DNA of 31,027 bases, taken from IMG/VR virus record IMGVR_UViG_3300025033_000013, one strand, 5' to 3'. This DNA comes from an uncultured virus (IMG/VR IMGVR_UViG_3300025033_000013). Lineage: Duplodnaviria > Heunggongvirae > Uroviricota > Caudoviricetes. Both the position numbers and the translations under genes were made by a program. How positions within the stretch are numbered: the stretch's first letter is position 1; each line of letters starts with the position of its first letter. The notes under the pieces were generated by a model that saw only the letters and a program-made list of their open reading frames with translations, was not told where the DNA came from and did not search any database. This document shows, piece by piece, positions 3,193 through 30,508 of this stretch.

Positions 3193-3252
3193 ATTTAGAT
3201 ATTCAGACCATCATTTTATGTTGCAACATAACAGATGGCCTCACAATTGTTG

Positions 3253-3338
3253 TGCGGCCAGAGGGATTCGAACCCCCGTTATACTATTCGCCCCCACCTT
3301 GTAAGGGTGGTGCTCTTGACCTACTGAACTATGGCCGC
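3253..3338 (-). tRNA. tRNA-Val(TAC) with 16-nt variable region
   Basis: GCGGCCA/TGGCCGC, CCACC-CTTACAA-GGTGG, T arm intact. Confidence 0.85.
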
Positions 3339-3350
3339 ATTTTTATTTTG

Positions 3351-3435
3351 AGCACTAGGTTGGATTCGAACCAACGTTGAGATTTCTCTGGCGGTTTTGC
3401 AGACCACCCCCTTCGACCACTCGGAGCACTAGTGC
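3351..3435 (-). tRNA. tRNA-Cys(GCA) with long variable arm
   Basis: GCACTAG/CTAGTGC, GTGGT-CTGCAAA-ACCGC, U73 Cys discriminator. Confidence 0.9.
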
Positions 3436-14212: not shown

Positions 14213-15172
14213 TCAAAGTTTATTATATTCCTCTAAAAAGAGTTCTCGAACCTTTGTTGAAATGTATTTGTTGACATCTTTTGATTGGAGGTTATTATCT
14301 TCTAAAACATCCTTTTCTTCGGCCATAATATCATTCACAACCCATCTAATGATATCACCCATTTTTTTAATGTCAATATCTCCGTTAGGGAAAATAATGC
14401 CCATACCTTGTTCAAATCTATTTTGAGTTACAGCGTAACCAACAAATTCATGGATAGAATTTATTTTCTCAGTATCAACTTTAGCTAAAGTCTTAACTTT
14501 AGATGCGCTATGTCGTTCACCCTTCACTTTGAAACGGTAATCATGACCATCAACCGTTGCACACCAAACCACACCCTCACCAATTCCTTCAATACCAAAA
14601 GCTTTACCTACGGGGCATAATTCTTCAACTGCAATGGTAATCTCACTTAATTCATTTTGAGCCAAATCAGGTCTATTAAAATCAATTTCGATTTCATAAG
14701 ATAAGAAATCTTCAACATTATAAATTCTATGGTCAATATCTCTTAAATAGTGAGAAGCTAAATGATATGGTTTAGTACTATCTTCAGGTACAACTTTTAC
14801 GTCAAATATGAAAAATGACTTTTCTATTTGAGATATTGCAACTCCTTTTTGGATGCCTTTACCAGCCCATTCACCGAATACAATAACAGTATCGTTTGGG
14901 TTAATCTTATGGTTTACATATCTAACATGTTCAACCAATTCAAGGAATGCTTGTTTATTATCTTCAACATACCTTGCAAACCCCATATTATCATTTTCAG
15001 GAGTTATAATATTACTTCTAGATTGTGCCCAAATACCATCATTTTCAGTATGTCCAATACCCGCATTTGAATTATGCACCAAAATGTCATTTACAAAAAA
15101 ACAATTTGTGTCTTGTATCGTAAGGTCAAATGACCTTCTTTCTTTTATTTTATTTATCTTTTTTAATTTCAT
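14213..15172 (-). CDS. Split-intein C-part (34 aa) + C-extein of Rnl2-family RNA ligase
   Basis: FDLTIQDTNCFFVNDILVHN|SNAG; QSR, FGEWAG, FFIFDV, EGVV, FKVK ligase motifs. Confidence 0.9.
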   Translation of the reverse strand: MKLKKINKIKERRSFDLTIQDTNCFFVNDILVHNSNAGIGHTENDGIWAQSRSNIITPENDNMGFARYVEDNKQAFLELVEHVRYVNHKINPNDTVIVFGEWAGKGIQKGVAISQIEKSFFIFDVKVVPEDSTKPYHLASHYLRDIDHRIYNVEDFLSYEIEIDFNRPDLAQNELSEITIAVEELCPVGKAFGIEGIGEGVVWCATVDGHDYRFKVKGERHSASKVKTLAKVDTEKINSIHEFVGYAVTQNRFEQGMGIIFPNGDIDIKKMGDIIRWVVNDIMAEEKDVLEDNNLQSKDVNKYISTKVRELFLEEYNKL

Positions 15173-19776: not shown

Positions 19777-19800
19777 AAAAGGCCCCATGAGGGCCTTTTA
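19775..19800. terminator. Bidirectional terminator
   Basis: AAAAAGGCCC-CATGA-GGGCCTTTT. Confidence 0.75.
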
Positions 19801-20760
19801 TTTTGTTAATATTTCATATAAATCTTTATTATTCATATTGATTATATATTCTCTAATCGTGTTAATTTTACCATCTTTTAACCCAAAAAACAATCCAGTG
19901 TGACGAGTATTTTTGAAGTGTTTATTAGATACTTCAAATACTTTCATCGCAAACCTCTTTTGTTCTTGTTTAGTTATGTTTTTAGGTTTATATGGTATTA
20001 ATTCTACCCAAGCATTTTCCAAATCATCAGTCAATTTTACTAACCCTTCTTTAAGTTGAATTATTTCTTCAGACCTTTCTGGGAACGTTGCAATCCATTC
20101 ATCAACTTCATTAGTTTTTAACACCTCTAATATATGGTGATTACCTAATTTACTTTTAGTATAATGCATTGCAACATAAGCTGGGTTTTTTAACTTGATT
20201 CTATTGAAATTAGCATCAACTACAACATAACCTTCTTCAGAGAATGACATACCTTCAAATGTCGCCATTAAATGACCAGCATTTGATGCATTAATGTTAA
20301 AAGATTTAACTAATGGTAACCCAATATCAGTAGATATTGTATATAAATCATTAAAACCATACTCATTTAACGTATCTAAATCTCTAACACCTAATAATGA
20401 TACTTTTGATTCTCCATGTGGGCAAACAACAATATTATACGGTGTCATTAATTCAAACATATATGTTCTACCTCTAACCATTCTATCCCAATTAAAACCA
20501 TATTTTGGTGATGTAATTGTATCCCAAAATAATTCAGAAAACTTAGTATTTGGTTTATCATTTACTTCACCTTCACCTTCGGCCATACCAGATGTGCCAG
20601 CACACCATTTTTCAGCTACCCAATCCCAATATACTTGAATCAATGAGTTATGTACCAATATCCCATTAGCAAAGAAATTATTGGTTTCTTTGGTTTGAAT
20701 ATCATACCTCTTAGAGTCACATTCTATCTCTTTAATATGTTTTACCTTAACTATTTTCAT
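19798..20760 (-). CDS. Split-intein C-part (38 aa) + C-extein of T4 Rnl1-like RNA ligase
   Basis: YDIQTKETNNFFANGILVHN|SLI; TYMFELMTPYNIVV, EEGYVV, RIKLKNPAY. Confidence 0.9.
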   Translation of the reverse strand: MKIVKVKHIKEIECDSKRYDIQTKETNNFFANGILVHNSLIQVYWDWVAEKWCAGTSGMAEGEGEVNDKPNTKFSELFWDTITSPKYGFNWDRMVRGRTYMFELMTPYNIVVCPHGESKVSLLGVRDLDTLNEYGFNDLYTISTDIGLPLVKSFNINASNAGHLMATFEGMSFSEEGYVVVDANFNRIKLKNPAYVAMHYTKSKLGNHHILEVLKTNEVDEWIATFPERSEEIIQLKEGLVKLTDDLENAWVELIPYKPKNITKQEQKRFAMKVFEVSNKHFKNTRHTGLFFGLKDGKINTIREYIINMNNKDLYEILTK

Positions 20761-21154: not shown

Positions 21155-21745
21155 TTAAGTAATTAGTAAGAATTCATCATCTTCGGTTAATTCATCAACC
21201 CTACGATAGCACTCTAAATTAGGTAACCATACTTTATGATTACCAGTTAACTTAATAATAGTACCATTTTCTAATTCAATCTCAAACCAATTATTAATAT
21301 TCTTTTTAATTGAATAATCCACTATTTCATCATATATTGGCTCATTAGTTTCTAAATCAAATGATAAAACTTTACCAGAATATTCCGTTTCACATATATC
21401 ACGAATTGTCATTTCACCACCCTCAGTTATCAATATGGTATCCCCGTGACAACACCCATCACATTTTTCTAAAATAAGTGCTGTGTTCCAATCTATTTTA
21501 GCCGCATGTGTTTCAGCTGAATTAAAGAATTTTCTGAATGCCAAAGACATAACCTTCCAAGTATCTTTCTCAAGTATAAGACCTCTACAATCTTGTACTT
21601 CAGGTATAGACATATCAGATTCTATTTGATTGTATTTGAGTAAAATCTTGTATCCATAATCCTTACAAGTTAATTTAAATGTATTAACTGCATTATCCAA
21701 GCCATACTCTTTAATGTACTTAACTATACTTAATTCATTTCCCAT
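21155..21745 (-). CDS. N-extein of Rnl1-like RNA ligase (97 aa) + split-intein N-part (99 aa)
   Basis: CRGLIL..FRKFFN..EKCDG|CCHGDT..LTGNHKV. Confidence 0.9.
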   Translation of the reverse strand: MGNELSIVKYIKEYGLDNAVNTFKLTCKDYGYKILLKYNQIESDMSIPEVQDCRGLILEKDTWKVMSLAFRKFFNSAETHAAKIDWNTALILEKCDGCCHGDTILITEGGEMTIRDICETEYSGKVLSFDLETNEPIYDEIVDYSIKKNINNWFEIELENGTIIKLTGNHKVWLPNLECYRRVDELTEDDEFLLIT

Positions 21746-22919: not shown

Positions 22920-24279
22920 AAAAAGGAGCGTAAAACCCATTCATCGCAAAGCGTGGATGGGATGTAAGCGACAAAGGTATGATTAACCTTGGCTTAAAAT
23001 ATATTGAACGGCTAAGTATGACAAATTTACATAAAACTATATTTTGGCATAAATTTTGATGTATAATAGGTATGAAAATGATTAATAAGACATATAAGTT
23101 TCGTCTTTTTCCAACAAATGAGCAAGAAGTGCTATTAAATCAACACTTTGGTCACTCTCGTTGGGTGTATAACCATTTTCTAAATGAACGCAAAGAACAA
23201 TACCAAGCGGATAAAAAGTCTGACAATTATTACAAACAAGCTGCCACTTTGACAAAACTTAAAAAAGAAGAAAAGACTATGTGGTTGAAAGAAGTTAATA
23301 GTCAAACTTTACAATTCGCTCTACGCTCTTTAGATACAGCTTTTTTAAACTTTTTTAGAGGTAATGCACAATTCCCAAAGTTTAAATCTCGTAAACATAA
23401 AAATACTTTTACCATACCTCAATTTGGTAGTATAGAAGGAGATAAAATTAATATACCAAAATTTAAAGAAGGTATTAAAGTTAAACTTCACAGAGAAGTC
23501 AAAGGTAAGATTGGTAAAATGATAATTACCAAAACACCAACAGGTAAATATTATGTTTCAATATTTACAGAACAACAGAATAAAGAATTACCTAAAACAA
23601 ATAAACAAGTTGGAATAGATTTAGGTTTAAAGGATTTTGTAATTACTTCTGATAATGCTAAATTCAAAAATAATAGATATACAAAAAAATATGCAAAACA
23701 ATTAAAAAAAGCACAACAACATCTTTCTCGTAAACAAAAAGGTAGTAATGGGTTTGAAAAACAAAAACTCAAAGTTGCTAAAATTCACGAGAAAATTGCA
23801 AGTTGTAGATTAGACACTTTACATAAGGTTTCACATAAACTGGTTAATCAATATGATTTAATATCAGTTGAGGACTTAAATGTAAAAGGTATGATTAAAA
23901 ACCACAAATTATCAAAACATATTGCCGATGCAAGTTGGGGTAATTTTGTTACATTACTTCAATATAAGTGTGATTGGTATGGAAAAGAACTTGTAAAAGT
24001 TAATCGTTTCTATCCTAGCTCGAAGACTTGTGGAGACTGTGGTTGGATAAATCAAAATTTAAAACTTTCTGATAGAGAATGGACTTGTAACTCGTGCGGT
24101 GTAATACACGACAGAGATGTAAATGCAAGTAGAAATATTCTCAAAGAAGGTTTAAAAATAATATCGGGTGGGATGCTCGATAACACTGATGGAGACTCAA
24201 ATAAGACTTCTATAAAGAAGCACAAGTCTGTGAAATCAGAAGCCCAACCCATCGCCTCTGGCGTGGGTGGGTAGTTCAC
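22920..24279 (+). mobile_element. IS200/IS605-family TnpB-only element
   Basis: Subterminal hairpins at both ends; begins after TTTAT and ends GTAGTTCAC; no tnpA. Confidence 0.88.
23072..24274 (+). CDS. tnpB: RNA-guided endonuclease TnpB
   Basis: HTH N-terminus, GIDLG, VEDL, SSKTC..CG..WTC..CG zinc finger, DRDVNA; RuvC D-E-D intact. Confidence 0.95.
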   Translation: MKMINKTYKFRLFPTNEQEVLLNQHFGHSRWVYNHFLNERKEQYQADKKSDNYYKQAATLTKLKKEEKTMWLKEVNSQTLQFALRSLDTAFLNFFRGNAQFPKFKSRKHKNTFTIPQFGSIEGDKINIPKFKEGIKVKLHREVKGKIGKMIITKTPTGKYYVSIFTEQQNKELPKTNKQVGIDLGLKDFVITSDNAKFKNNRYTKKYAKQLKKAQQHLSRKQKGSNGFEKQKLKVAKIHEKIASCRLDTLHKVSHKLVNQYDLISVEDLNVKGMIKNHKLSKHIADASWGNFVTLLQYKCDWYGKELVKVNRFYPSSKTCGDCGWINQNLKLSDREWTCNSCGVIHDRDVNASRNILKEGLKIISGGMLDNTDGDSNKTSIKKHKSVKSEAQPIASGVGG

Positions 24280-25470: not shown

Positions 25471-26161
25471 GATTTGTAGTAAATGTGGTGTCTATAAACC
25501 TGTAAAAGAATTTAGTAAATGTTCTAGAATTAAAAGTGGTTTAAAATCACAATGTAAGGGGTGTATATCTATTGCTGGTAAAAAATATAGGGCTAATCCT
25601 GAAGTTAAAAAAGTTAATAAAATTAGGGTTCAGAATTGGGTTAAAGAAAATAAGGAAAAGCGCACCACTTATATTTCTAATTATTATGAAGATAATAAAG
25701 AAGAACGTTTAAAATATTCCAAGAAGTTTTATAAAGATAATCGTGAAAAGTATAAAAAGATGCGTAAAAAGTATTATTATAAAAATAAAGATACTATTTA
25801 TGAACAAATTAAATATAAGAGAAAGACTGACATCATTTATAAATTAAAACACACTGTAGGTGGTATAATTAGACAATCGATTAAAAGGGGTGGTTATGAT
25901 AAAAAATCTAGGAGTCATGAAATATTGGGGTGTACTTATAAAGAATTTAAAAAACATATCGAATCTCAATGGGAACCGTGGATGAATTGGGATAATCATG
26001 GTTTATATAATTATCAATATAATTTTGGTTGGGATTTAGACCATATCATACCACTTGCCTCAGCAACATGTAAAGAAGATATAATTAAATTAAATCATTA
26101 TACAAATTTTCAACCATTGTGTAGTTATGTTAATAGAAACGAAAAAAGGGCTAATTATTAG
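25460..26161 (+). CDS. HNH homing endonuclease
   Basis: CSKC..CKGC N-terminus; WDLDHIIPL..LNHYTNFQPL..N. Confidence 0.85.
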   Translation: METKICSKCGVYKPVKEFSKCSRIKSGLKSQCKGCISIAGKKYRANPEVKKVNKIRVQNWVKENKEKRTTYISNYYEDNKEERLKYSKKFYKDNREKYKKMRKKYYYKNKDTIYEQIKYKRKTDIIYKLKHTVGGIIRQSIKRGGYDKKSRSHEILGCTYKEFKKHIESQWEPWMNWDNHGLYNYQYNFGWDLDHIIPLASATCKEDIIKLNHYTNFQPLCSYVNRNEKRANY

Positions 26162-26719
26162 CCCTTTTCTTTTGTTTATTTAAATAGTTTTCAACAACCC
26201 TAGATACAGTTATCTCACCTACTGAATTATAAGTTTGTATCATTTTTTGAATTGTTTTTAACGGTACGTTATGTGAATTACGTTCTGCCAATACTTCGGC
26301 AGTTTGGCCACCCAAACCTACATCTACAATTTTAATATTGTTTTCATCAAAACCTAATTCAAGAGCTTCAATAATATAATTTTCAACTTCCCTTAATCTT
26401 AGATTAGTGTTGTCGATAACTGGTGTAATACCAGATTCCATAGATTTTTTAGCATTTAAGAAATTCTTATTATGCATCCTACCATGTTCAGACCAATCAC
26501 CTGAATCTACCATTTTTTTAAAGTAACCATTATAGTCACCAGTTGCGTCAATTAAATCATCTGTTGAATGAACAACACCTTCACCAACCAATGTTTTTGC
26601 TTTCGTTGATTTACCAGAACCTGTCACGGTACCCCTCTCATGATAATCAATACCTGAGAGGGGCGAGAAATTTTTACACCTAAACAATTATACCCTTTTA
26701 GACTTTCTAAAAGTTTCAT
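26151..26719 (-). pseudogene. P-loop polynucleotide kinase (AAA_33-like) with a 5-nt frame break in Walker A
   Basis: MKLLESLKGYNCLGVKISRPSQVLIIMRGVP* then GSGKSTKAK..STDD..DNTN..RNSHNVP in another frame. Confidence 0.7.
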
Positions 26720-26727
26720 TTTTATTT

Positions 26728-27573
26728 TTATTTTTTTATCCATTCCTTATATTTTAATTCATATCTTTCTAAAAATTTCAAATCACCATTATTATATAAT
26801 TTTTCAATTTGATTAAATTTTAATCTCCCAATATCAACCATTTTATATTTTAAGTTGTTTTTTTTACAAAACTCGATTGCTCCATTTTTTTTTCTAATTA
26901 CACTATCAGAATTCCACAATTTTTTAGGTTTACTTTCAACCATATATTTATTGTTAAGAACAAAATCTGAAAAATAAGTTTTTTCAACACCATTATAATC
27001 AACATATTTAACTACCCATTTATTTTCCTCACCACTTTCCCAACTAAAACCAAACCTTTCAATCACATTAACCATAAAAGTTAATTCATTTAACGACCTA
27101 AAAAACCAACCTTTATACCAACCAGACCAACCATTACCAGAACCTTTAGGTGACGGTTTACCATACATATTATTATTTTCACCACTATTTAATAAACTTT
27201 GCTTATTTTTATATTTACTAAGTTTATCATCAGCTTTACTTTTACCAAATTTATCAACCCATACATTATAAAATGATTTACCATACATACCATTATTAAC
27301 ACCTTTTGATAATTTAGATAACTTTTCTTTAGTTTTATCAGAATGAGTCTTACCAATTTTAATTTTAGATTGACGCTTTTTTGTTTCTTCACTATGCTTT
27401 TGGCCAAAGAAAGGATTTTTATCACCTTTCATACCATACATCGCATTATTTTCGCCAGATGAAGCACAACTTCTACAAACATTATTATTTTTTTCAGCGT
27501 TAATTCTTACATATTTTGTACTATAATGGATTTCTGAGTTACATTTTGGGCAATTTCTAATATATTTTTCCAT
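26728..27573 (-). CDS. NUMOD3 + TnsA-like PD-(D/E)xK homing endonuclease
   Basis: CPKC..CRSC; HSEETKK repeats; FRSLNE..YFSDF..VESKP. Confidence 0.8.
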   Translation of the reverse strand: MEKYIRNCPKCNSEIHYSTKYVRINAEKNNNVCRSCASSGENNAMYGMKGDKNPFFGQKHSEETKKRQSKIKIGKTHSDKTKEKLSKLSKGVNNGMYGKSFYNVWVDKFGKSKADDKLSKYKNKQSLLNSGENNNMYGKPSPKGSGNGWSGWYKGWFFRSLNELTFMVNVIERFGFSWESGEENKWVVKYVDYNGVEKTYFSDFVLNNKYMVESKPKKLWNSDSVIRKKNGAIEFCKKNNLKYKMVDIGRLKFNQIEKLYNNGDLKFLERYELKYKEWIKK

Positions 27574-28047: not shown

Positions 28048-28647
28048 CTAATTTTTTCGTCTGACTGATGTTGGACGATTACTAGCCGTAGGTGCTGTAC
28101 GAATATTAGCCCTAGGTGCTGTACTACGATTAACAGCGTTTCTCGTAGGTGTACTAATATTAGTATTTCGTGTTGTGTTAATATTAGTATTTCGTGTTGT
28201 GTTAATATTAGTATTTCGTGTTGTGTAATTATTATTAATAGGTGTATTTCTTCTAACTGTTGAGTTTTGTTGTCTAATAGCTGAGTTGTTATTATTTACT
28301 CTTCTAACGGGAATATCTCTATTAATGGTTGTTCTTCTACTATTCACATAAGCTTTTTTATGTGAGTTATTAATATAATAATGATGGTTGGGGGTAAAAT
28401 TCCTTGTATTACAATACCTCACAAAATATGGGTGATTGTAATAATACCTTCTAACACCATATTGGTCGAAATAATAATTATCGTAAAAATAATATGGGTT
28501 TGTTATATATAAACTATGAATTGCGTTATAATCATAATAACCAAAACCATAGGTTACATTAACTGGTTCGGTAGCCAATTGAAATGATGCACATGAAGTC
28601 ATCATACTAATTGTTAATATTACTAAAAGTGCTCTAAGTGTTTTCAT
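28048..28647 (-). CDS. Lipoprotein with Tyr-rich core and R/N/T-rich tail
   Basis: Signal peptide with lipobox MTSC; low-complexity tail. Confidence 0.75.
   Translation of the reverse strand: MKTLRALLVILTISMMTSCASFQLATEPVNVTYGFGYYDYNAIHSLYITNPYYFYDNYYFDQYGVRRYYYNHPYFVRYCNTRNFTPNHHYYINNSHKKAYVNSRRTTINRDIPVRRVNNNNSAIRQQNSTVRRNTPINNNYTTRNTNINTTRNTNINTTRNTNISTPTRNAVNRSTAPRANIRTAPTASNRPTSVRRKN
28156..28226. repeat. 24-bp tandem repeat x3 (TTRNTNIN)
   Basis: TAATATTAGTATTTCGTGTTGTGT repeated in frame. Confidence 0.85.
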
Positions 28648-28701
28648 AGTAGTAATAATATTACTAAAAGTGCTCTAAGTGTTCTCATAGTAGTAATAAT
28701 A
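28615..28701. repeat. 41-bp tandem duplication of the lipoprotein start region
   Basis: TAATATTACTAAAAGTGCTCTAAGTGTT(T/C)TCATAGTAGTAA x2. Confidence 0.9.
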
Positions 28702-28721
28702 TACCAATAAATGTGCCATAG

Positions 28722-28745
28722 TGATTCTAGAGGGATTCGAACCCC
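28722..28745 (-). pseudogene. tRNA 3'-end remnant
   Basis: GGGGTTCGAATCCCTCTAGAATCA, a near copy of the adjacent Arg(ACG) 3' end. Confidence 0.65.
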
Positions 28746-28763
28746 ATTGCTGGTTTATTGTAG

Positions 28764-28836
28764 TGACCCTAGAGGGATTCGAACCCCCGCTCTACTGGTT
28801 CGTAACCAGTGGCATTATCCGCTATGCTATAGAGCC
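28764..28836 (-). tRNA. tRNA-Arg(ACG)
   Basis: Canonical cloverleaf, ACTGG-TTACGAA-CCAGT. Confidence 0.93.
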
Positions 28837-28886
28837 ATAAATAGTTGTGATTAACATTCGGTTTAAGGCACTCGATATAACTATTG

Positions 28887-28966
28887 TGACGGCCAAGAGA
28901 TTCGAACTCTTATTTACAACTCCAATTACGTTTAATGGTTTCGAAGACCACCTCGGTTACACCGCC
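28887..28966 (-). tRNA. Rearranged tRNA-like gene, anticodon TCG (Arg)
   Basis: Acceptor and T arm present; GTGGT-CTTCGAA-ACCAT only 8 nt after the acceptor 5' strand; D-loop-like TAATTGGA follows it. Confidence 0.7.
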
Positions 28967-28976
28967 ATTTTTAAAA

Positions 28977-29014
28977 TCCTTCTCTAGTTTCGAAGACTAG
29001 GGGAATACATCGCC
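28977..29014 (-). pseudogene. 5'-half remnant of a rearranged Arg(TCG) tRNA
   Basis: GGCGATG TATT CCC CTAGT-CTTCGAA-ACTAG AGAAGG. Confidence 0.6.
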
Positions 29015-29048
29015 ATTTTTGGAAGTAAATTGTTTAATAATAAATATG

Positions 29049-29127
29049 TAACGACAGTGGGATTCGAACCCACGTTTTCAGCTCCGCTACCCTTATCGGT
29101 TTAGAAAACCAACGGGGCTACACCCGC
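29049..29127 (-). tRNA. Rearranged tRNA-like gene, anticodon TCT (Arg), chimeric acceptor
   Basis: TAGC CCCG TTGGT-TTTCTAA-ACCGA TAA GGG TAGCGGA GCTG AAAAC GTGGG-TTCGAAT-CCCAC. Confidence 0.6.
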
Positions 29128-29139
29128 ATTTATTTTATA

Positions 29140-29162
29140 AAGACCCCCTCGGCTATGCCGCC
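29140..29162 (-). pseudogene. 5' fragment of a rearranged tRNA ending at the anticodon loop
   Basis: GGCGGCA TAGC CGAG GGGGT CTT; GGCGGCA pairs with TGTCGTT at 29056-29050. Confidence 0.55.
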
Positions 29163-29200
29163 ATTTACCACAATTAAGGTATTGTGGTCAACCATACGTT

Positions 29201-29539
29201 TTAATATTCTTTATATTCAGCTAACCCTTCAGTTACTAGCAAATCATTAATGTTTATAGTTTCCACATCAGTACTTAAAAATATCTCACCCAAATACCTA
29301 CCATATTTACCTTGTTTATCTTTAATTGTGTGAATCGCCACATCCTTATCTAGAATTAATTCTCTAAGCCTATCTCTAGTTATTAAACCAAGTTCACGCT
29401 CTGCGCCACGTATTTCTGGTGTGTTGATTCTAAGTAATCTAATTTTTTCAGTTATCTTTACATTAAACCCTAAGTCTATTTCAGCTGTAACTGTATCACC
29501 ATCATAAACTGATGTTATTTTTGCTTTATATTCGTACAT
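29201..29539 (-). CDS. Thermonuclease (SNase-like)
   Basis: VYDGDT..IRLLRINTPE..GKYGRYLG..LVTEGLA. Confidence 0.9.
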   Translation of the reverse strand: MYEYKAKITSVYDGDTVTAEIDLGFNVKITEKIRLLRINTPEIRGAERELGLITRDRLRELILDKDVAIHTIKDKQGKYGRYLGEIFLSTDVETININDLLVTEGLAEYKEY

Positions 29540-29599
29540 ATTTCATTAATTTGTTTTAAGTAATTCCATTGGAATCGTTTTTATTAGTTTTGCATTATA

Positions 29600-29902
29600 T
29601 TAATTAAATATCCAATGGTTATTGTAAAATTTATAATCTTTTGACTCATAAACCCTAAGATAATACCCATGTTCTTCTAATCTAACGATATCCTCTTTTG
29701 GAAACCATTCAAATAAATTTTCTAATGTATCAGTACACGATAAATAACCAATAATGTTTTCATCAAATGGCATCGGTAATAGATTATTTCTACAAAAATT
29801 AAATTCTTTATGAATAAGACCTGTGAACTCACCATCTATATTATACCATAACCCCTGATTAGTGGTAATATTACCCACCCTATAGAAAATTTTTTTCTTC
29901 AT
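29600..29902 (-). CDS. Hypothetical phage protein (stop may be premature)
   Basis: FYRV..QGLWY..; frame stays open 17 codons past the TAA. Confidence 0.65.
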   Translation of the reverse strand: MKKKIFYRVGNITTNQGLWYNIDGEFTGLIHKEFNFCRNNLLPMPFDENIIGYLSCTDTLENLFEWFPKEDIVRLEEHGYYLRVYESKDYKFYNNHWIFN

Positions 29903-29922
29903 AAAAACTTTGTTAATATTAG

Positions 29923-29954
29923 TGACTCCATCAGGCTTCGAACCTGAATCTAGA
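29923..29954 (-). pseudogene. tRNA 3'-half remnant
   Basis: TCAGG-TTCGAAG-CCTGA TGGAGTC A with no matching 5' half. Confidence 0.6.
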
Positions 29955-29958
29955 GTTG

Positions 29959-30030
29959 TGAACTCGCCCAGAGTCGAACTGAGGTCTTAGCTTTAGGAAA
30001 GCCAGATTTTTCCAATTAAACTACAAGTCC
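29959..30030 (-). tRNA. tRNA-Arg(CCT)
   Basis: GGACTTG/CGAGTTC, TGGCT-TTCCTAA-AGCTA, T arm intact. Confidence 0.85.
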
Positions 30031-30112
30031 GTTTATTTTCCTTCATCGCAATAGTATAAATCTAAATCACCTATAATCAATAAATACCGTAAACTGTCGT
30101 TGGGAAGCGCAA

Positions 30113-30508
30113 TTAATTACTTCTATTTTCTAATCGTTGTAAAACGCTTTTTATTTGTTTTACTTCTTCTTTTGTTTGATACAACTGGTCGGCATTTAAT
30201 AAATTAATTGAATCTGTATATTCTCTAGCTTTTCTTTCTACTATCATTAAAGAATCCCTCACCTTTCTAGATTTAATTGCACTAACATTATTTATACTAT
30301 CTAAATAATATTTTTGCCATTCTTCTTTTGGACTTGGTAAATTTTCTACTTTTTTAACTGTATAAACTTTTTGTTCTGGGGTATCAAATGTTCTACCTTC
30401 GTACTCTTTGCTTTGTTGACCTTGGGTATAAAACCATCCAAACACAGCTATTAATGTACCGCCAAGTACACCTACAATCAATTGCCAATATTTCATAAAC
30501 TTTTCCAT
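30113..30508 (-). CDS. N-terminally anchored membrane protein
   Basis: Single TM segment then a helical region; ATATTTATA upstream. Confidence 0.7.
   Translation of the reverse strand: MEKFMKYWQLIVGVLGGTLIAVFGWFYTQGQQSKEYEGRTFDTPEQKVYTVKKVENLPSPKEEWQKYYLDSINNVSAIKSRKVRDSLMIVERKAREYTDSINLLNADQLYQTKEEVKQIKSVLQRLENRSN

Follow-up and report, generated by a model that had tools for sequence, protein, structure and literature searches.

The cloverleaf order of tRNA elements is regarded as near-universal, and its known exceptions have arms shortened or lost, as in mitochondria, or helix lengths changed, as in Sec, Pyl and allo-tRNA. The T5 tRNA-Lys set against PARIS and the retron-bypassing tRNAs are cloverleaves of the usual kind with minor changes; they resemble the genes described here in being phage tRNAs whose difference from host tRNA is thought relevant in conflict. 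That tRNAs encoded by phages enable infection to escape tRNA-targeting defences is reported in PMC11464382 and PMC11555353. The D-arm-lacking mitochondrial tRNAs (mammalian mt-tRNA-Ser(AGY), nematode) have lost the D element and are flexible, as stated in a tRNA review (PMC7609411) in which the word "phage" occurs 0 times. Natural non-canonical tRNAs, some of them in phages, have also come from metagenome mining (tRNA-Sec, selC*-type tRNA-Cys and allo-tRNAs, with acceptor/T branches of 8/4, 9/3 and 9/4), and PMC5389517 gives only 8/4 and 9/3 forms for phages. Finally, in split or permuted tRNA genes (Cyanidioschyzon, Nanoarchaeum) the order of elements in the gene departs from the cloverleaf, and the permuted ones are processed to a normal cloverleaf, as described in PMC3978253 and PMC3728597.

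The window analysed here is a 31,027-nt stretch of DNA from an uncultured virus (IMG/VR IMGVR_UViG_3300025033_000013; Caudoviricetes), in which an earlier note had read positions 28887-29162 as Arg tRNA-like genes with the anticodon arm inserted inside the D-arm. We consider it probable that two genes and two 5' fragments in this interval belong to a widespread family of tRNA-Arg with a rewired core, 79-82 nt long and carried by phages. The acceptor stem (7 bp), the T arm (5 bp and a TTCGAAT-type loop) and the anticodon stem-loop are canonical, but the core elements come in a different order. In the proposed fold, U8-A9 is followed by the 5' strand of the D-stem, which would run directly into the anticodon arm. 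On the 3' side of this arm stand two nt of the 3' D-stem strand, a 7-8-nt bulge with a D-loop signature (UA and R, then two variable positions, GG and A), the closing nucleotides of the same D-stem strand, a linker of 5 nt and the T arm. The four-way junction would become a three-way junction with one long, bulge-bearing helix, and the RNA would be expected to fold to an L shape of normal dimensions.

With canonical tRNA-Arg (RF00005) the family shares the 7-bp acceptor, the 5-bp T stem, the TTCGAAT-type T loop, an anticodon loop of 7 nt that contains U33 and a purine at 37, anticodons for Arg, U8-A9 following the acceptor, a D-stem of 4 bp and of G10-C25/C11-G24 flavour, GG then A in the D-loop element, the 19-56 and 15-48 pairs, the location in tRNA clusters and an often encoded CCA. 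It differs in that D-stem positions 13 and 22 flank the inserted anticodon arm and the D-loop is a bulge between 3'-strand positions 23 and 24, so that there is neither a D hairpin nor a four-way junction; with respect to the anticodon stem the D-stem has inverted polarity, and the RF00005 model returns marginal scores of 25-38 bits. The D-arm-lacking mitochondrial tRNAs likewise have no D hairpin and a short 5' connector, whereas the phage family is longer than a standard tRNA and keeps a D-stem, a GG-bearing D-loop element and a covarying contact with the T loop; the mitochondrial type was ruled out by the covariation of the D-stem pairs and the 19-56 contact. While tRNA-Sec, selC*-type tRNA-Cys and allo-tRNAs keep the cloverleaf order with changed helix lengths, in the phage family it is the order of the elements that has changed and the 7/5 branch that is kept; membership in the allo-tRNA or tRNA-Sec groups was ruled out by 7/5 throughout, and the Rfam tRNA-Sec model matched the full-length copy U4 weakly (22.2 bits). 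In contrast to permuted tRNA genes, the mature ends lie in the usual places and the rearrangement is internal and permanent, and a permuted or split gene was rejected on the position of both acceptor strands at opposite ends of one 79-82-nt gene.

Gene units in the interval

The features of the interval and its surroundings are given below, with scores from R1, a covariance model built from 65 homologs in other viruses only.

28722..28745, minus strand: tRNA 3' fragment (T arm and acceptor strand) duplicated from the adjacent tRNA-Arg(ACG); sequence reading, partial R1 match at 28731-28745
28763..28836, minus strand: canonical tRNA-Arg(ACG), immediate downstream neighbour; ARAGORN, RF00005 61.9 bits
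28887..28966, minus strand: U4, full-length rewired tRNA-Arg(UCG); R1 82.8 bits, E 1.3e-21
28960-28966 with 28888-28894, minus strand: U4 acceptor stem, discriminator at 28887
28956-28959 (TAAC) with 28917-28920 (GTTG), minus strand: U4 outer D-stem
28954-28955 (CG) with 28929-28930 (CG), minus strand: U4 inner D-stem
28934-28952, minus strand: U4 anticodon arm, loop 28940-28946, anticodon TCG 28942-28944
28921-28928, minus strand: U4 D-loop-like bulge, TAATTGGA
28912-28916, minus strand: U4 linker, 5 nt
28895-28911, minus strand: U4 T arm
28977..29014, minus strand: U3, 5' fragment of a family member; sequence reading, R1 model positions 16-32 only, 6.9 bits
29049..29127, minus strand: U2, rewired tRNA-Arg(UCU) body with a probably foreign 3' acceptor strand; R1 68.9 bits
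29103-29105, minus strand: U2 anticodon TCT
29083-29089, minus strand: U2 bulge, TAGCGGA
29057-29073, minus strand: U2 T arm
29050-29056 (3') and 29121-29127 (5'), minus strand: U2 acceptor strands, mutually mismatched
29142..29162, minus strand: U1, 5' fragment; acceptor strand, TAGC, CG and anticodon-stem 5' strand only
29923..29957, minus strand: tRNA 3' fragment (T arm and acceptor strand) directly after tRNA-Arg(CCT); R1 match at 29923-29975, 21.8 bits
29958..30030, minus strand: canonical tRNA-Arg(CCT), neighbour lying upstream within this small Arg cluster; ARAGORN, RF00005 51.8 bits

All four units lie on the minus strand, and this reading of the sequence agrees with the earlier note on two full-length copies and two 5' fragments within 28887-29162 and on the stem variants, namely TAAC/GTTG with CG/CG in U4, TAGC/GCTG with CCC/GGG in U2, and CC/GG in U3. 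The element order that it had ascribed to all four units holds for U4 and U2, but U1 shares less of it, ending in the 5' strand of the anticodon stem. The U4 anticodon stem has 6 bp and closes the loop CTTCGAA. Its acceptor is paired at 6 of 7 positions, with a G.G at 7-66 that also occurs in 3 of 65 family members and in the canonical Asp and Lys tRNAs of the same phage, and its RF00005 score of 25.0 bits lies below the 29-bit gathering cut-off. From its sequence, U4 looks intact and functional, and it is the sole such copy in the window. The fragment U3 consists of an acceptor strand, TATT, CC, a complete TCG anticodon hairpin and GG, at which it ends without the bulge, the T arm or the 3' acceptor strand; its acceptor strand is identical to that of an intact TCT gene at another family locus (L045).

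U2 has the element order of U4. Its own acceptor strands could pair at 5 of 7 positions, only 1 of them Watson-Crick, and the minimum-free-energy fold of U2 alone lacks an acceptor stem, whereas the acceptor strand of U1 pairs at 7 of 7 positions (three G.U) with the 3' strand that ends U2. In the minimum-free-energy fold of the 114 nt spanning U1 and U2, the U1 acceptor strand was joined to the U2 3' strand. As part of the favoured explanation, U2 is in all likelihood a chimera, in which a UCU body and the 3' acceptor strand of an older gene were fused at a point in the conserved T arm, and U1 would, with good probability, be the surviving 5' end of that older gene. An equivalent chimera, joined in the T loop, was found at one family locus (L340), and the two adjacent genes that it combines are seen at another (L371). 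The UCU copy is probably defective, and U1 and U3 look like recombination scars rather than parts of a working unit. Of the four units, a single one is probably a working gene; the others would be a chimera and a pair of scars.

The RF00005 model fits a single tRNA to 29049-29162, its D region interrupted by a 38-nt insert (33.6 bits), a score that U2 reaches only because the U1 acceptor strand is borrowed. This match could be taken as a sign of a split, permuted or intron-bearing gene whose transcript is processed to a normal cloverleaf, but the near-constant length in the family (80 nt in 49 of 64 members, 79 nt in 11 of 64), the canonical ends and the fact that no removable segment leaves both a D hairpin and an anticodon arm make this explanation almost negligible in probability; the insert reading is unique to the U1-U2 pair of this phage, and the chimera accounts for it. 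DNA contigs from the 4 sequencing runs that cover the stretch had 0-1 differences across it, one being a G>A at 29032, and contained no structural variants of the remnants. The sequencing runs listed as containing this DNA included no RNA run. A promoter and terminator scan of 28600-30200 gave nothing useful, with 3 promoter-like sites versus a mean of 7.6 in shuffles.

Covariation of the helices and tertiary contacts

Helix statistics were obtained from 65 homologs, with the window's own copies excluded. Paired cells amounted to 95.3%, versus 66.1% in shuffles and at most 49% with the partners slid, and RNAalifold, uninformed of the fold, predicted the same fold. The acceptor cells were paired in 98.0%, with double changes at all 7 pairs, the T-stem cells in 99.1%, and all anticodon-stem pairs from 16-32 to 20-28 covaried. 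Within the D-stem, pair 13-39 occurred as five pair types and was never unpaired, and pair 10-50, the 5' side of which was left free by the scan pattern, was G-C in 39 homologs, A-U in 26 and unpaired in none. In eight disjoint sequence pairs with 80% identity or more elsewhere, the state of 10-50 differed, both sides having changed. The best tree held 16 changes of this state, with 2 independent pairs on supported branches, both in the same direction; this tree of 80-nt sequences is poorly resolved, and 2 supported pairs do not suffice for a sign test. Pairs 8-52 and 9-51 never vary and so give no proof of the outer half of the outer helix, and U8 may make its usual tertiary contact instead of pairing in this helix. 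Folding of single sequences left the fold unrecovered for U4 (z -0.86) and locus L006 (z -0.97) and recovered it partially for locus L001 (z -4.15).

In the family, the 13 nt from the acceptor to the anticodon loop form one continuous strand, the partner strand of the D-stem lies 3' of the anticodon arm, and the canonical D hairpin before the anticodon arm, with its four-way junction, is absent. An ordinary tRNA without a D arm, in which a long variable region bears its own local hairpin as in class II, would be aligned as RF00005 aligns the members (16 of 20 loci pass 29 bits), and the start of the U4 bulge, TAAT, is able to pair locally with GTTG. However, 32 of 65 homologs leave the informative pair of this local hairpin, 43-50, unpaired, all 65 form the long-range pair 10-50, which shows 26 double changes, and the segment bears D-loop signatures and pairs with the T loop, which makes such a variable region highly improbable.

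Statistics for the tertiary pairs came from two scans in which the bulge and the T loop were unconstrained, with 116 of 139 distinct sequences passing the filters. The 19-56-like pair was G-C in 110 members (two of these re-read by eye), A-U in 4, C-G in 1, U-A in 1 and mismatched in 0, such that all six departures from G-C were compensatory. The 15-48-like pair was A-U in 103 members and G-C in 13, with no other state, and within the window it differs in a compensatory manner between U4 (A-U) and U2 (G-C). These comparative counts show that the bulge keeps a G19-C56-type contact with the T loop and an R15-Y48-type contact with the last base of the linker. Taken with the covariation in the 65 independent viral homologs, they bear out the earlier proposal of a topologically rearranged tRNA fold whose D-stem encloses the anticodon arm, and a non-cloverleaf wiring, with the anticodon arm inside the D-arm, is strongly supported by sequence comparison. 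The covariation of both tertiary pairs had passed unremarked in the first reading.

The possibility that all four units are functionless, decayed or rearranged copies of ordinary tRNA-Arg, produced by recombination in a mobile-element-rich cluster, has to be considered in view of the truncation of U1 and U3, the mismatched acceptor of U2, the further tRNA fragments at 28722-28745 and 29923-29957, the intein, NUMOD3 endonuclease, SNase-like nuclease and transposase genes in the window, and the rejection of U4 by ARAGORN and by the RF00005 cut-off. As an account of the whole interval it is distinctly improbable: U4 scores 82.8 bits in a model from 65 homologs of unrelated viruses, and debris would not conserve the paired acceptor cells of those homologs (98%), compensatory changes affecting each helix and two tertiary pairs, or a set of Arg anticodons only. 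For single units, decay is probably the right reading of U1 and U3 and likely that of U2; it is not the right one for U4 or for the architecture.

Extent and detection of the family

Homologs with the same element order were found by blastn in Pseudomonas, Maribacter and megaphage records. Scanning viral contigs with a sequence pattern returned 101 stretches with 70 distinct sequences, 66 of the 70 with the rewired architecture, and across the pattern scans of viral contigs the distinct homologs of this order numbered well over 100. Every homolog set was drawn by sequence patterns derived from the family, on which both its breadth and the all-Arg result are conditional; a relaxed model search also found Ile-type relatives. 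The covariance model and homolog search proposed in the earlier note came out in its favour, with high scores for U4 and U2 and with homologs whose stems covary. R1, built without this phage, scores U4 (82.8 bits) and U2 (68.9 bits) far above the canonical tRNAs of the window (at most 27.6 bits), and the resemblance of the two copies to the family is therefore beyond chance. Gene length in the family is 79-82 nt.

Members of the family sit in tRNA clusters, and in Pseudomonas phage HHBS10_2 a member is the sole candidate in the whole record (first-look R1 search, 1 candidate, 1 scored). ARAGORN missed 123 of 133 members, and six GenBank records of cultured Caulobacter, Brevundimonas, Pseudomonas, Microbacterium and Maribacter phages had no tRNA feature at the positions concerned. 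RF00005 scored the family loci at 28.9-38.2 bits, with 16 of 20 passing the 29-bit cut-off, at 29.9-38.2 bits, and a permissive Rfam search of the units and 20 family loci matched no family except tRNA and tRNA-Sec. A full-text literature search of the main texts of open-access papers returned no description of the architecture. The genes appear to form a large family of arginine tRNAs in phages that has so far gone unannotated and matches no described tRNA class we found. With so many members missed by ARAGORN and no annotation in any of the six cultured-phage records, phage tRNA censuses, and the codon-usage arguments built on them, are incomplete. The presence of members in cultured, tractable Caulobacter, Brevundimonas, Pseudomonas, Microbacterium and Maribacter phages makes direct tests possible. 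Cultured carriers are, for instance, Caulobacter phages CcrColossus and Ccr10, Brevundimonas phage Kabachok, PA11-like Pseudomonas phages, Maribacter phage Panino and Microbacterium phage Pumpernickel.

Arginine identity and possible roles

All anticodons of the 116 members were of the Arg type (TCT 68, ACG 26, TCG 18, CCT 2, GCG 1 and CCG 1). U33 and purine 37 were present in 64 of 64 members and an encoded CCA in 35 of 64, and the acceptor/T domain was 7/5, counted in base pairs, throughout. Both U2 and U4 have TTCGAAT as their T loop, and T-loop positions 54/58 were T/A in 115 of 116 members and A/T in the remaining one. The discriminator was U in 37 of 116 members, which is unusual in bacterial tRNA-Arg. 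The E. coli ArgRS identity set comprises A20 and C35; the A after GG sits at what would be the A20 place, and C35 is present in 116 of 116, as follows from the Arg anticodons. GGA was invariant in alignment A1 but fixed by the scan pattern, and in the free scans the pattern likewise prescribed the A. In the Ile-type relatives, GGT stands in place of GGA, the anticodon having changed together with the base after GG. We infer that the RNA would be cut by RNase P, receive CCA or have it already encoded, be charged by the host ArgRS and decode AGA (UCU) or CGA (UCG) for an AT-rich phage with AGA as its main Arg codon.

To our knowledge, the core wiring is unlike that of every known translating bacterial tRNA. 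A non-translational tRNA mimic, whether a decoy or sponge for an anticodon nuclease, a tRNA-modifying enzyme or ArgRS, or a primer or regulator, is unlikely. In this case the rewiring would keep the RNA off the ribosome, as might be suggested by this departure of the core wiring (compare PMC7609411), and the window also codes for RNA ligases, of the kind used by phages to mend cut tRNAs, which points to tRNA conflict as a matter of importance to this phage. A decoy has no evident need, however, for the 7/5 domain, the discriminator and often encoded CCA, the preserved elbow, U33 and purine 37 (64 of 64) or the set of Arg-box anticodons, and the joint switch of anticodon and post-GG base in the Ile-type sister group is what identity rules predict. 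A lone phage tRNA-Arg(UCU) is the usual pattern of codon supplementation, and the HHBS10_2 member, as the sole first-look R1 candidate, resembles such a lone codon-supplementing tRNA.

On the favoured explanation of a rewired tRNA-Arg family, a further step would be that phages have evolved and widely spread a working non-cloverleaf tRNA (Arg, with an Ile sister group) whose rewiring is adaptive against host nucleases or other enzymes, which we regard as tentative and rather doubtful. The outer L shape would be kept here, as would the anticodon and the signals for charging, and a continuous helix with a D-loop bulge would replace the junction and part of the core, so that tRNAs for AT-rich codons (AGA, AUA) might become invisible to enzymes that read the canonical geometry of the D-arm and anticodon stem. 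We know of no nuclease that is evaded by the rewired fold, and the evasion of host tRNases or decoy role put forward in the earlier note is speculation. If the rewired fold is real, the L shape would be reachable from another secondary structure with all arms and elbow contacts kept, and rewired scaffolds, if still charged, might be of interest for orthogonal tRNA design.

With respect to the tRNA complement of the phage, ARAGORN called only Arg-ACG and Arg-CCT for arginine in the whole 93-kb genome, missing U2 and U4. No canonical Arg gene with TCG or TCT was present, and four RF00005 matches without an ARAGORN call, read by eye, included none for Arg. The earlier claim that the two copies supply the TCG and TCT isoacceptors stands in terms of gene content, but the TCT copy, with its mismatched acceptor, is probably defective. 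In 49 long ORFs, AGA made up 326 of the 538 Arg codons; U2, the copy for this commonest Arg codon of the phage, is the damaged one, which fits badly with strong selection for decoding.

Arrangement of the arginine tRNA-like units

Four tRNA-Arg-like units, two full length and two 5' fragments, were resolved on the minus strand near two canonical tRNA-Arg genes called by ARAGORN and two 3' tRNA fragments:

28722-28745: 3' tRNA fragment
28763-28836: canonical tRNA-Arg-ACG
28887-28966, minus: U4, full-length unit, anticodon TCG, loop CTTCGAA
28977-29014, minus: U3, ends past the anticodon hairpin and GG
29049-29127, minus: U2, full-length unit, anticodon TCT, loop TTTCTAA
29142-29162, minus: U1, ends within the 5' strand of its own anticodon stem
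29923-29957: 3' tRNA fragment
29958-30030: canonical tRNA-Arg-CCT

U4 and U2 both open with a 7-nt acceptor strand, TA(A/G)C, a 2-3-nt strand and a hairpin of 6 bp whose loop has 7 nt. The short strand's partner comes next, and after it a segment of 7-8 nt containing GG, then G(T/C)TG, a linker of 5 nt, a T arm of canonical form and the 3' acceptor strand. The earlier note had ascribed this element order to all the units; its description is accurate, except that U1, read on the minus strand, has the first elements only. The ARAGORN calls, nine for the window and 22 for the complete virus genome (93,027 bp), do not include U2 or U4. Between 28887 and 29162, the Rfam tRNA model RF00005 reported only 29049-29162 (33.6 bits), pairing U2's 3' end to the acceptor strand of U1 and passing over 38 nt, and U4 reached 25.0 bits, below the 29-bit cut-off. 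As had been proposed, neither TCG nor TCT is supplied by any canonical tRNA gene of the phage. The phage has a G+C content of 30.9%. Across 49 long ORFs there are 538 codons for Arg, 326 of them AGA and 39 CGA.

Covariation, tertiary contacts and place among known tRNAs

A blastn search of phage records recovered this order, with acceptor stems fully paired, from Pseudomonas phage HHBS10_2, Maribacter phage Panino and an uncultured phage of 635 kb. A first pattern covering the GG segment, linker and T loop gave 101 stretches in IMG/VR contigs, and with the three phage loci added there were 108 matches comprising 70 distinct sequences. Four distinct sequences were dropped (one canonical tRNA at three loci, and L030, L043 and L057, which hold the 3' part only), two that duplicate genes of the window itself were excluded (L014, L067, L097) and the megaphage gene was added, giving an alignment of 65. 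Two further scans fixed the 5' strand, bulge start and linker, with no constraint on the inner bulge bases or on any part of the T arm; 116 of their 139 distinct sequences passed (acceptor with at least 6/7 pairs, T stem with at least 4/5), the remaining 23 being chance matches or damaged genes. All homologs were thus ascertained through sequence patterns, and, as judged from these sequences, the window units are members of a large family.

In the 65-sequence alignment, 95.3% of cells were paired, versus 66.1% in column shuffles and 37-49% when partners were slid. Pair 10-50 of the outer helix, the 5' side of which was free in the search pattern, is G-C in 39 and A-U in 26 sequences, and pair 13-39 of the inner helix occurs as five pair types; neither is ever unpaired in these foreign homologs. 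The covariation of the unusual stems asserted in the earlier note is thereby upheld, and these two pairs are regarded as the decisive ones for the fold. A local hairpin closed by the GG segment was rejected, its informative pair being unpaired in 32/65, and RNAalifold with the alignment as sole input returned the same rewired fold. A tree test of the 10-50 state was underpowered: the best tree needs 16 changes, with only two pairs on supported branches. Eight disjoint sequence pairs that share at least 80% identity outside 10-50 have different states there, both positions having changed, and kinship therefore cannot account for all of this covariation. Pairs 8-52 and 9-51 are invariant among the 65 sequences, hence offer no covariation evidence either way, and are therefore neither supported nor refuted.

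In the 116 members, the second bulge G acts with T-loop position 3 as G19-C56. The script counted G-C in 108, A-U in four (L295, L330, L382, L388), C-G in one (L203), U-A in one (L392) and 'A-C' in two, the last being mis-parsed GGAA bulges that are G-C by eye, so that true mismatches number 0/116. The third bulge base acts with the last linker base as R15-Y48 (A-U 103, G-C 13, other 0; n = 116), and within the window this pair shows a compensatory difference, A-U in U4 versus G-C in U2. The two contacts identify the bulge as a functional D loop and speak for an L shape like that of tRNA. In L251, T-loop positions 54/58 are swapped from T/A to A/T (loop ATCGTAC), a double change that would keep the reverse-Hoogsteen T54-A58 pair.

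The anticodons of the 116 pattern-drawn members are all Arg (TCT 68, ACG 26, TCG 18, CCT 2, GCG 1, CCG 1). Of 64 members of the first set, all have U33 and a purine at 37, 35 encode CCA and 49 are exactly 80 nt long; canonical tRNAs adjoin family members. We infer that these are genuine tRNA-Arg charged by the host enzyme. ARAGORN made no call in 123 of 133 distinct members and called Arg just once, and 16/20 family loci reached the RF00005 cut-off, at 29.9-38.2 bits with a wrong alignment, versus 46-66 bits for adjoining canonical tRNAs.

Compared with the canonical cloverleaf, the family breaks the defining order but shows the other structural tRNA features examined. Retention of the D element and the elbow contact sets it apart from D-armless mitochondrial tRNAs, and its 7/5 acceptor/T branch from allo-tRNA and tRNA-Sec; it is neither class II nor permuted. 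In a stacking-layer scheme drawn from the secondary structure, the anticodon stem (5), the 15-33 layer and four D-stem pairs would make up the canonical 10, and helix 8-11/49-52 would occupy the usual stacking place of the tertiary core layers. No description of the rewired architecture was found in full-text searches of the open-access literature, and Rfam 15 holds no family for rewired tRNAs.

State of U4 and U2 and the surrounding genes

Scored with a covariance model trained on the 65 foreign sequences, U4 reached 82.8 bits and U2 68.9 bits, versus at most 27.6 bits for canonical tRNAs. The U4 acceptor has 6/7 pairs, with a G.G at 7-66 that also occurs in 3/65 family members and in the phage's canonical Asp and Lys tRNAs; U4 is probably functional. 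The acceptor strands of U2 itself form one Watson-Crick pair, four wobbles and two mismatches, and the acceptor stem is absent when U2 is folded alone. The 5' strand of U1 and the 3' strand of U2 pair 7/7 in exact register. In the simplest reading, a UCU gene body with its leader would have taken the place of an older gene's interior, leaving U1 and the old 3' strand as leftovers, and one junction of the chimera would lie in the T arm, which is near-identical across all these genes. Locus L340, which is identical to one L371 gene up to the T loop and to the neighbouring L371 gene beyond, with a mismatched acceptor (4/7), is a chimera of this kind and a natural precedent for U2.

Frequent recombination also fits U3, together with the two 3' fragments (28722-28745, 29923-29957). 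L224 and L243 have family bodies with poor acceptors. In L030, L043 and L057, the 3' part of a family gene, beginning with the GG segment and including the T arm, acceptor strand and CCA, follows an AT-rich stretch unrelated to the family; such loci may be scars or may be genes that an insertion has interrupted. A tandem duplication of ~41 nt (window 28616-28700), directly downstream of the fragment 28722-28745, spans the start codon and the opening codons of the minus-strand ORF 28048-28647. At 29032, in the U2-U3 spacer, G>A was present in contigs of two of four DNA runs, and no structural variant of the surrounding region was seen in the contigs of the four runs.

Several mobile and nuclease genes crowd around the tRNA genes, and the window also has inteins:

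14213-15172, 19798-20760, 21155-21745, 26151-26687: four ligase/kinase ORFs
23072-24274, plus: transposase gene (phrog_506, E 1.3e-141)
26728-27573, minus: NUMOD3-motif endonuclease-like gene
29201-29539, minus: SNase-like nuclease gene, immediately upstream of U1

The four ORFs comprise an RNA ligase gene of the Rnl2 type whose end is intein-like, a T4 Rnl1-type ligase gene that is apparently intein-split, with Hint and intein-splicing matches on both of its ORFs, and an AAA_33 kinase-like gene. Phages mend tRNAs cut by anticodon nucleases with RNA ligases of such types, and the two ligase genes and the kinase-like gene resemble a tRNA repair set.

Distribution and related specificities

Building a covariance model and searching phages, as the earlier note had suggested, gave matches in 24/24 whole viral records, with at most four copies per record. 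Cultured carriers include Caulobacter phages CcrColossus (80.7 bits) and Ccr10 (80.1 bits), Brevundimonas phage Kabachok (74.9 bits) and Microbacterium phage Pumpernickel (66.6 bits); a tRNA feature was annotated at the family locus in 0/6 records inspected (four model-confirmed carriers and two others). Against bacteria and archaea (one genome per species, 185,579), the first pattern gave 98 stretches, of which only 8 matches, at 7 loci, belong to the family, each scoring at least 73 bits; the others are canonical tRNAs, mostly archaeal.

Among the lower-scoring matches of the family model is a sister group that is wired alike but has Ile anticodons, mostly TAT, with GAT in L431 and L447. These 81-nt genes have the 5' strand TAC, a 9-nt bulge TAG(C/T)GGTA(A/C) and GGT instead of GGA, and their inner stem covaries (CAG/CTG, CGA/TCG, CAT/ATG, CGT/ACG, CGC/GCG). 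By reading of the listing, they make up 17 of 33 distinct sequences from 40 stretches; 16 loci in viral contigs were checked singly (L427, L428, L431, L435, L439, L441, L442, L444, L445, L447, L452, L455, L456, L459, L461, L462), and L400, L412 and L421 are further ones. Given this sister group with the same order, the rewired plan, as read from these genes, extends beyond Arg.

A third match to the family model in the virus's own genome lies outside the window (G000:C1:42758-42834, plus strand, 50.4 bits), with CA for GG in the bulge, the T loop TGTGAAT and an anticodon region without a standard 7-nt loop; through a double change it would keep both elbow pairs. RF00005 matches without an ARAGORN call occur at genome 32466-32531, 33335-33407 and 42661-42750. 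Bacterial long variable arms are expected only in Leu, Ser, Tyr and Sec tRNAs; in ARAGORN drawings, tRNAs of 86-91 nt for Val, Cys, Asp and Pro are cloverleaves that have a long variable region or arm; they are located at window 3252-3338 and 3350-3435 (minus) and genome 31240-31330 and 43553-43640.
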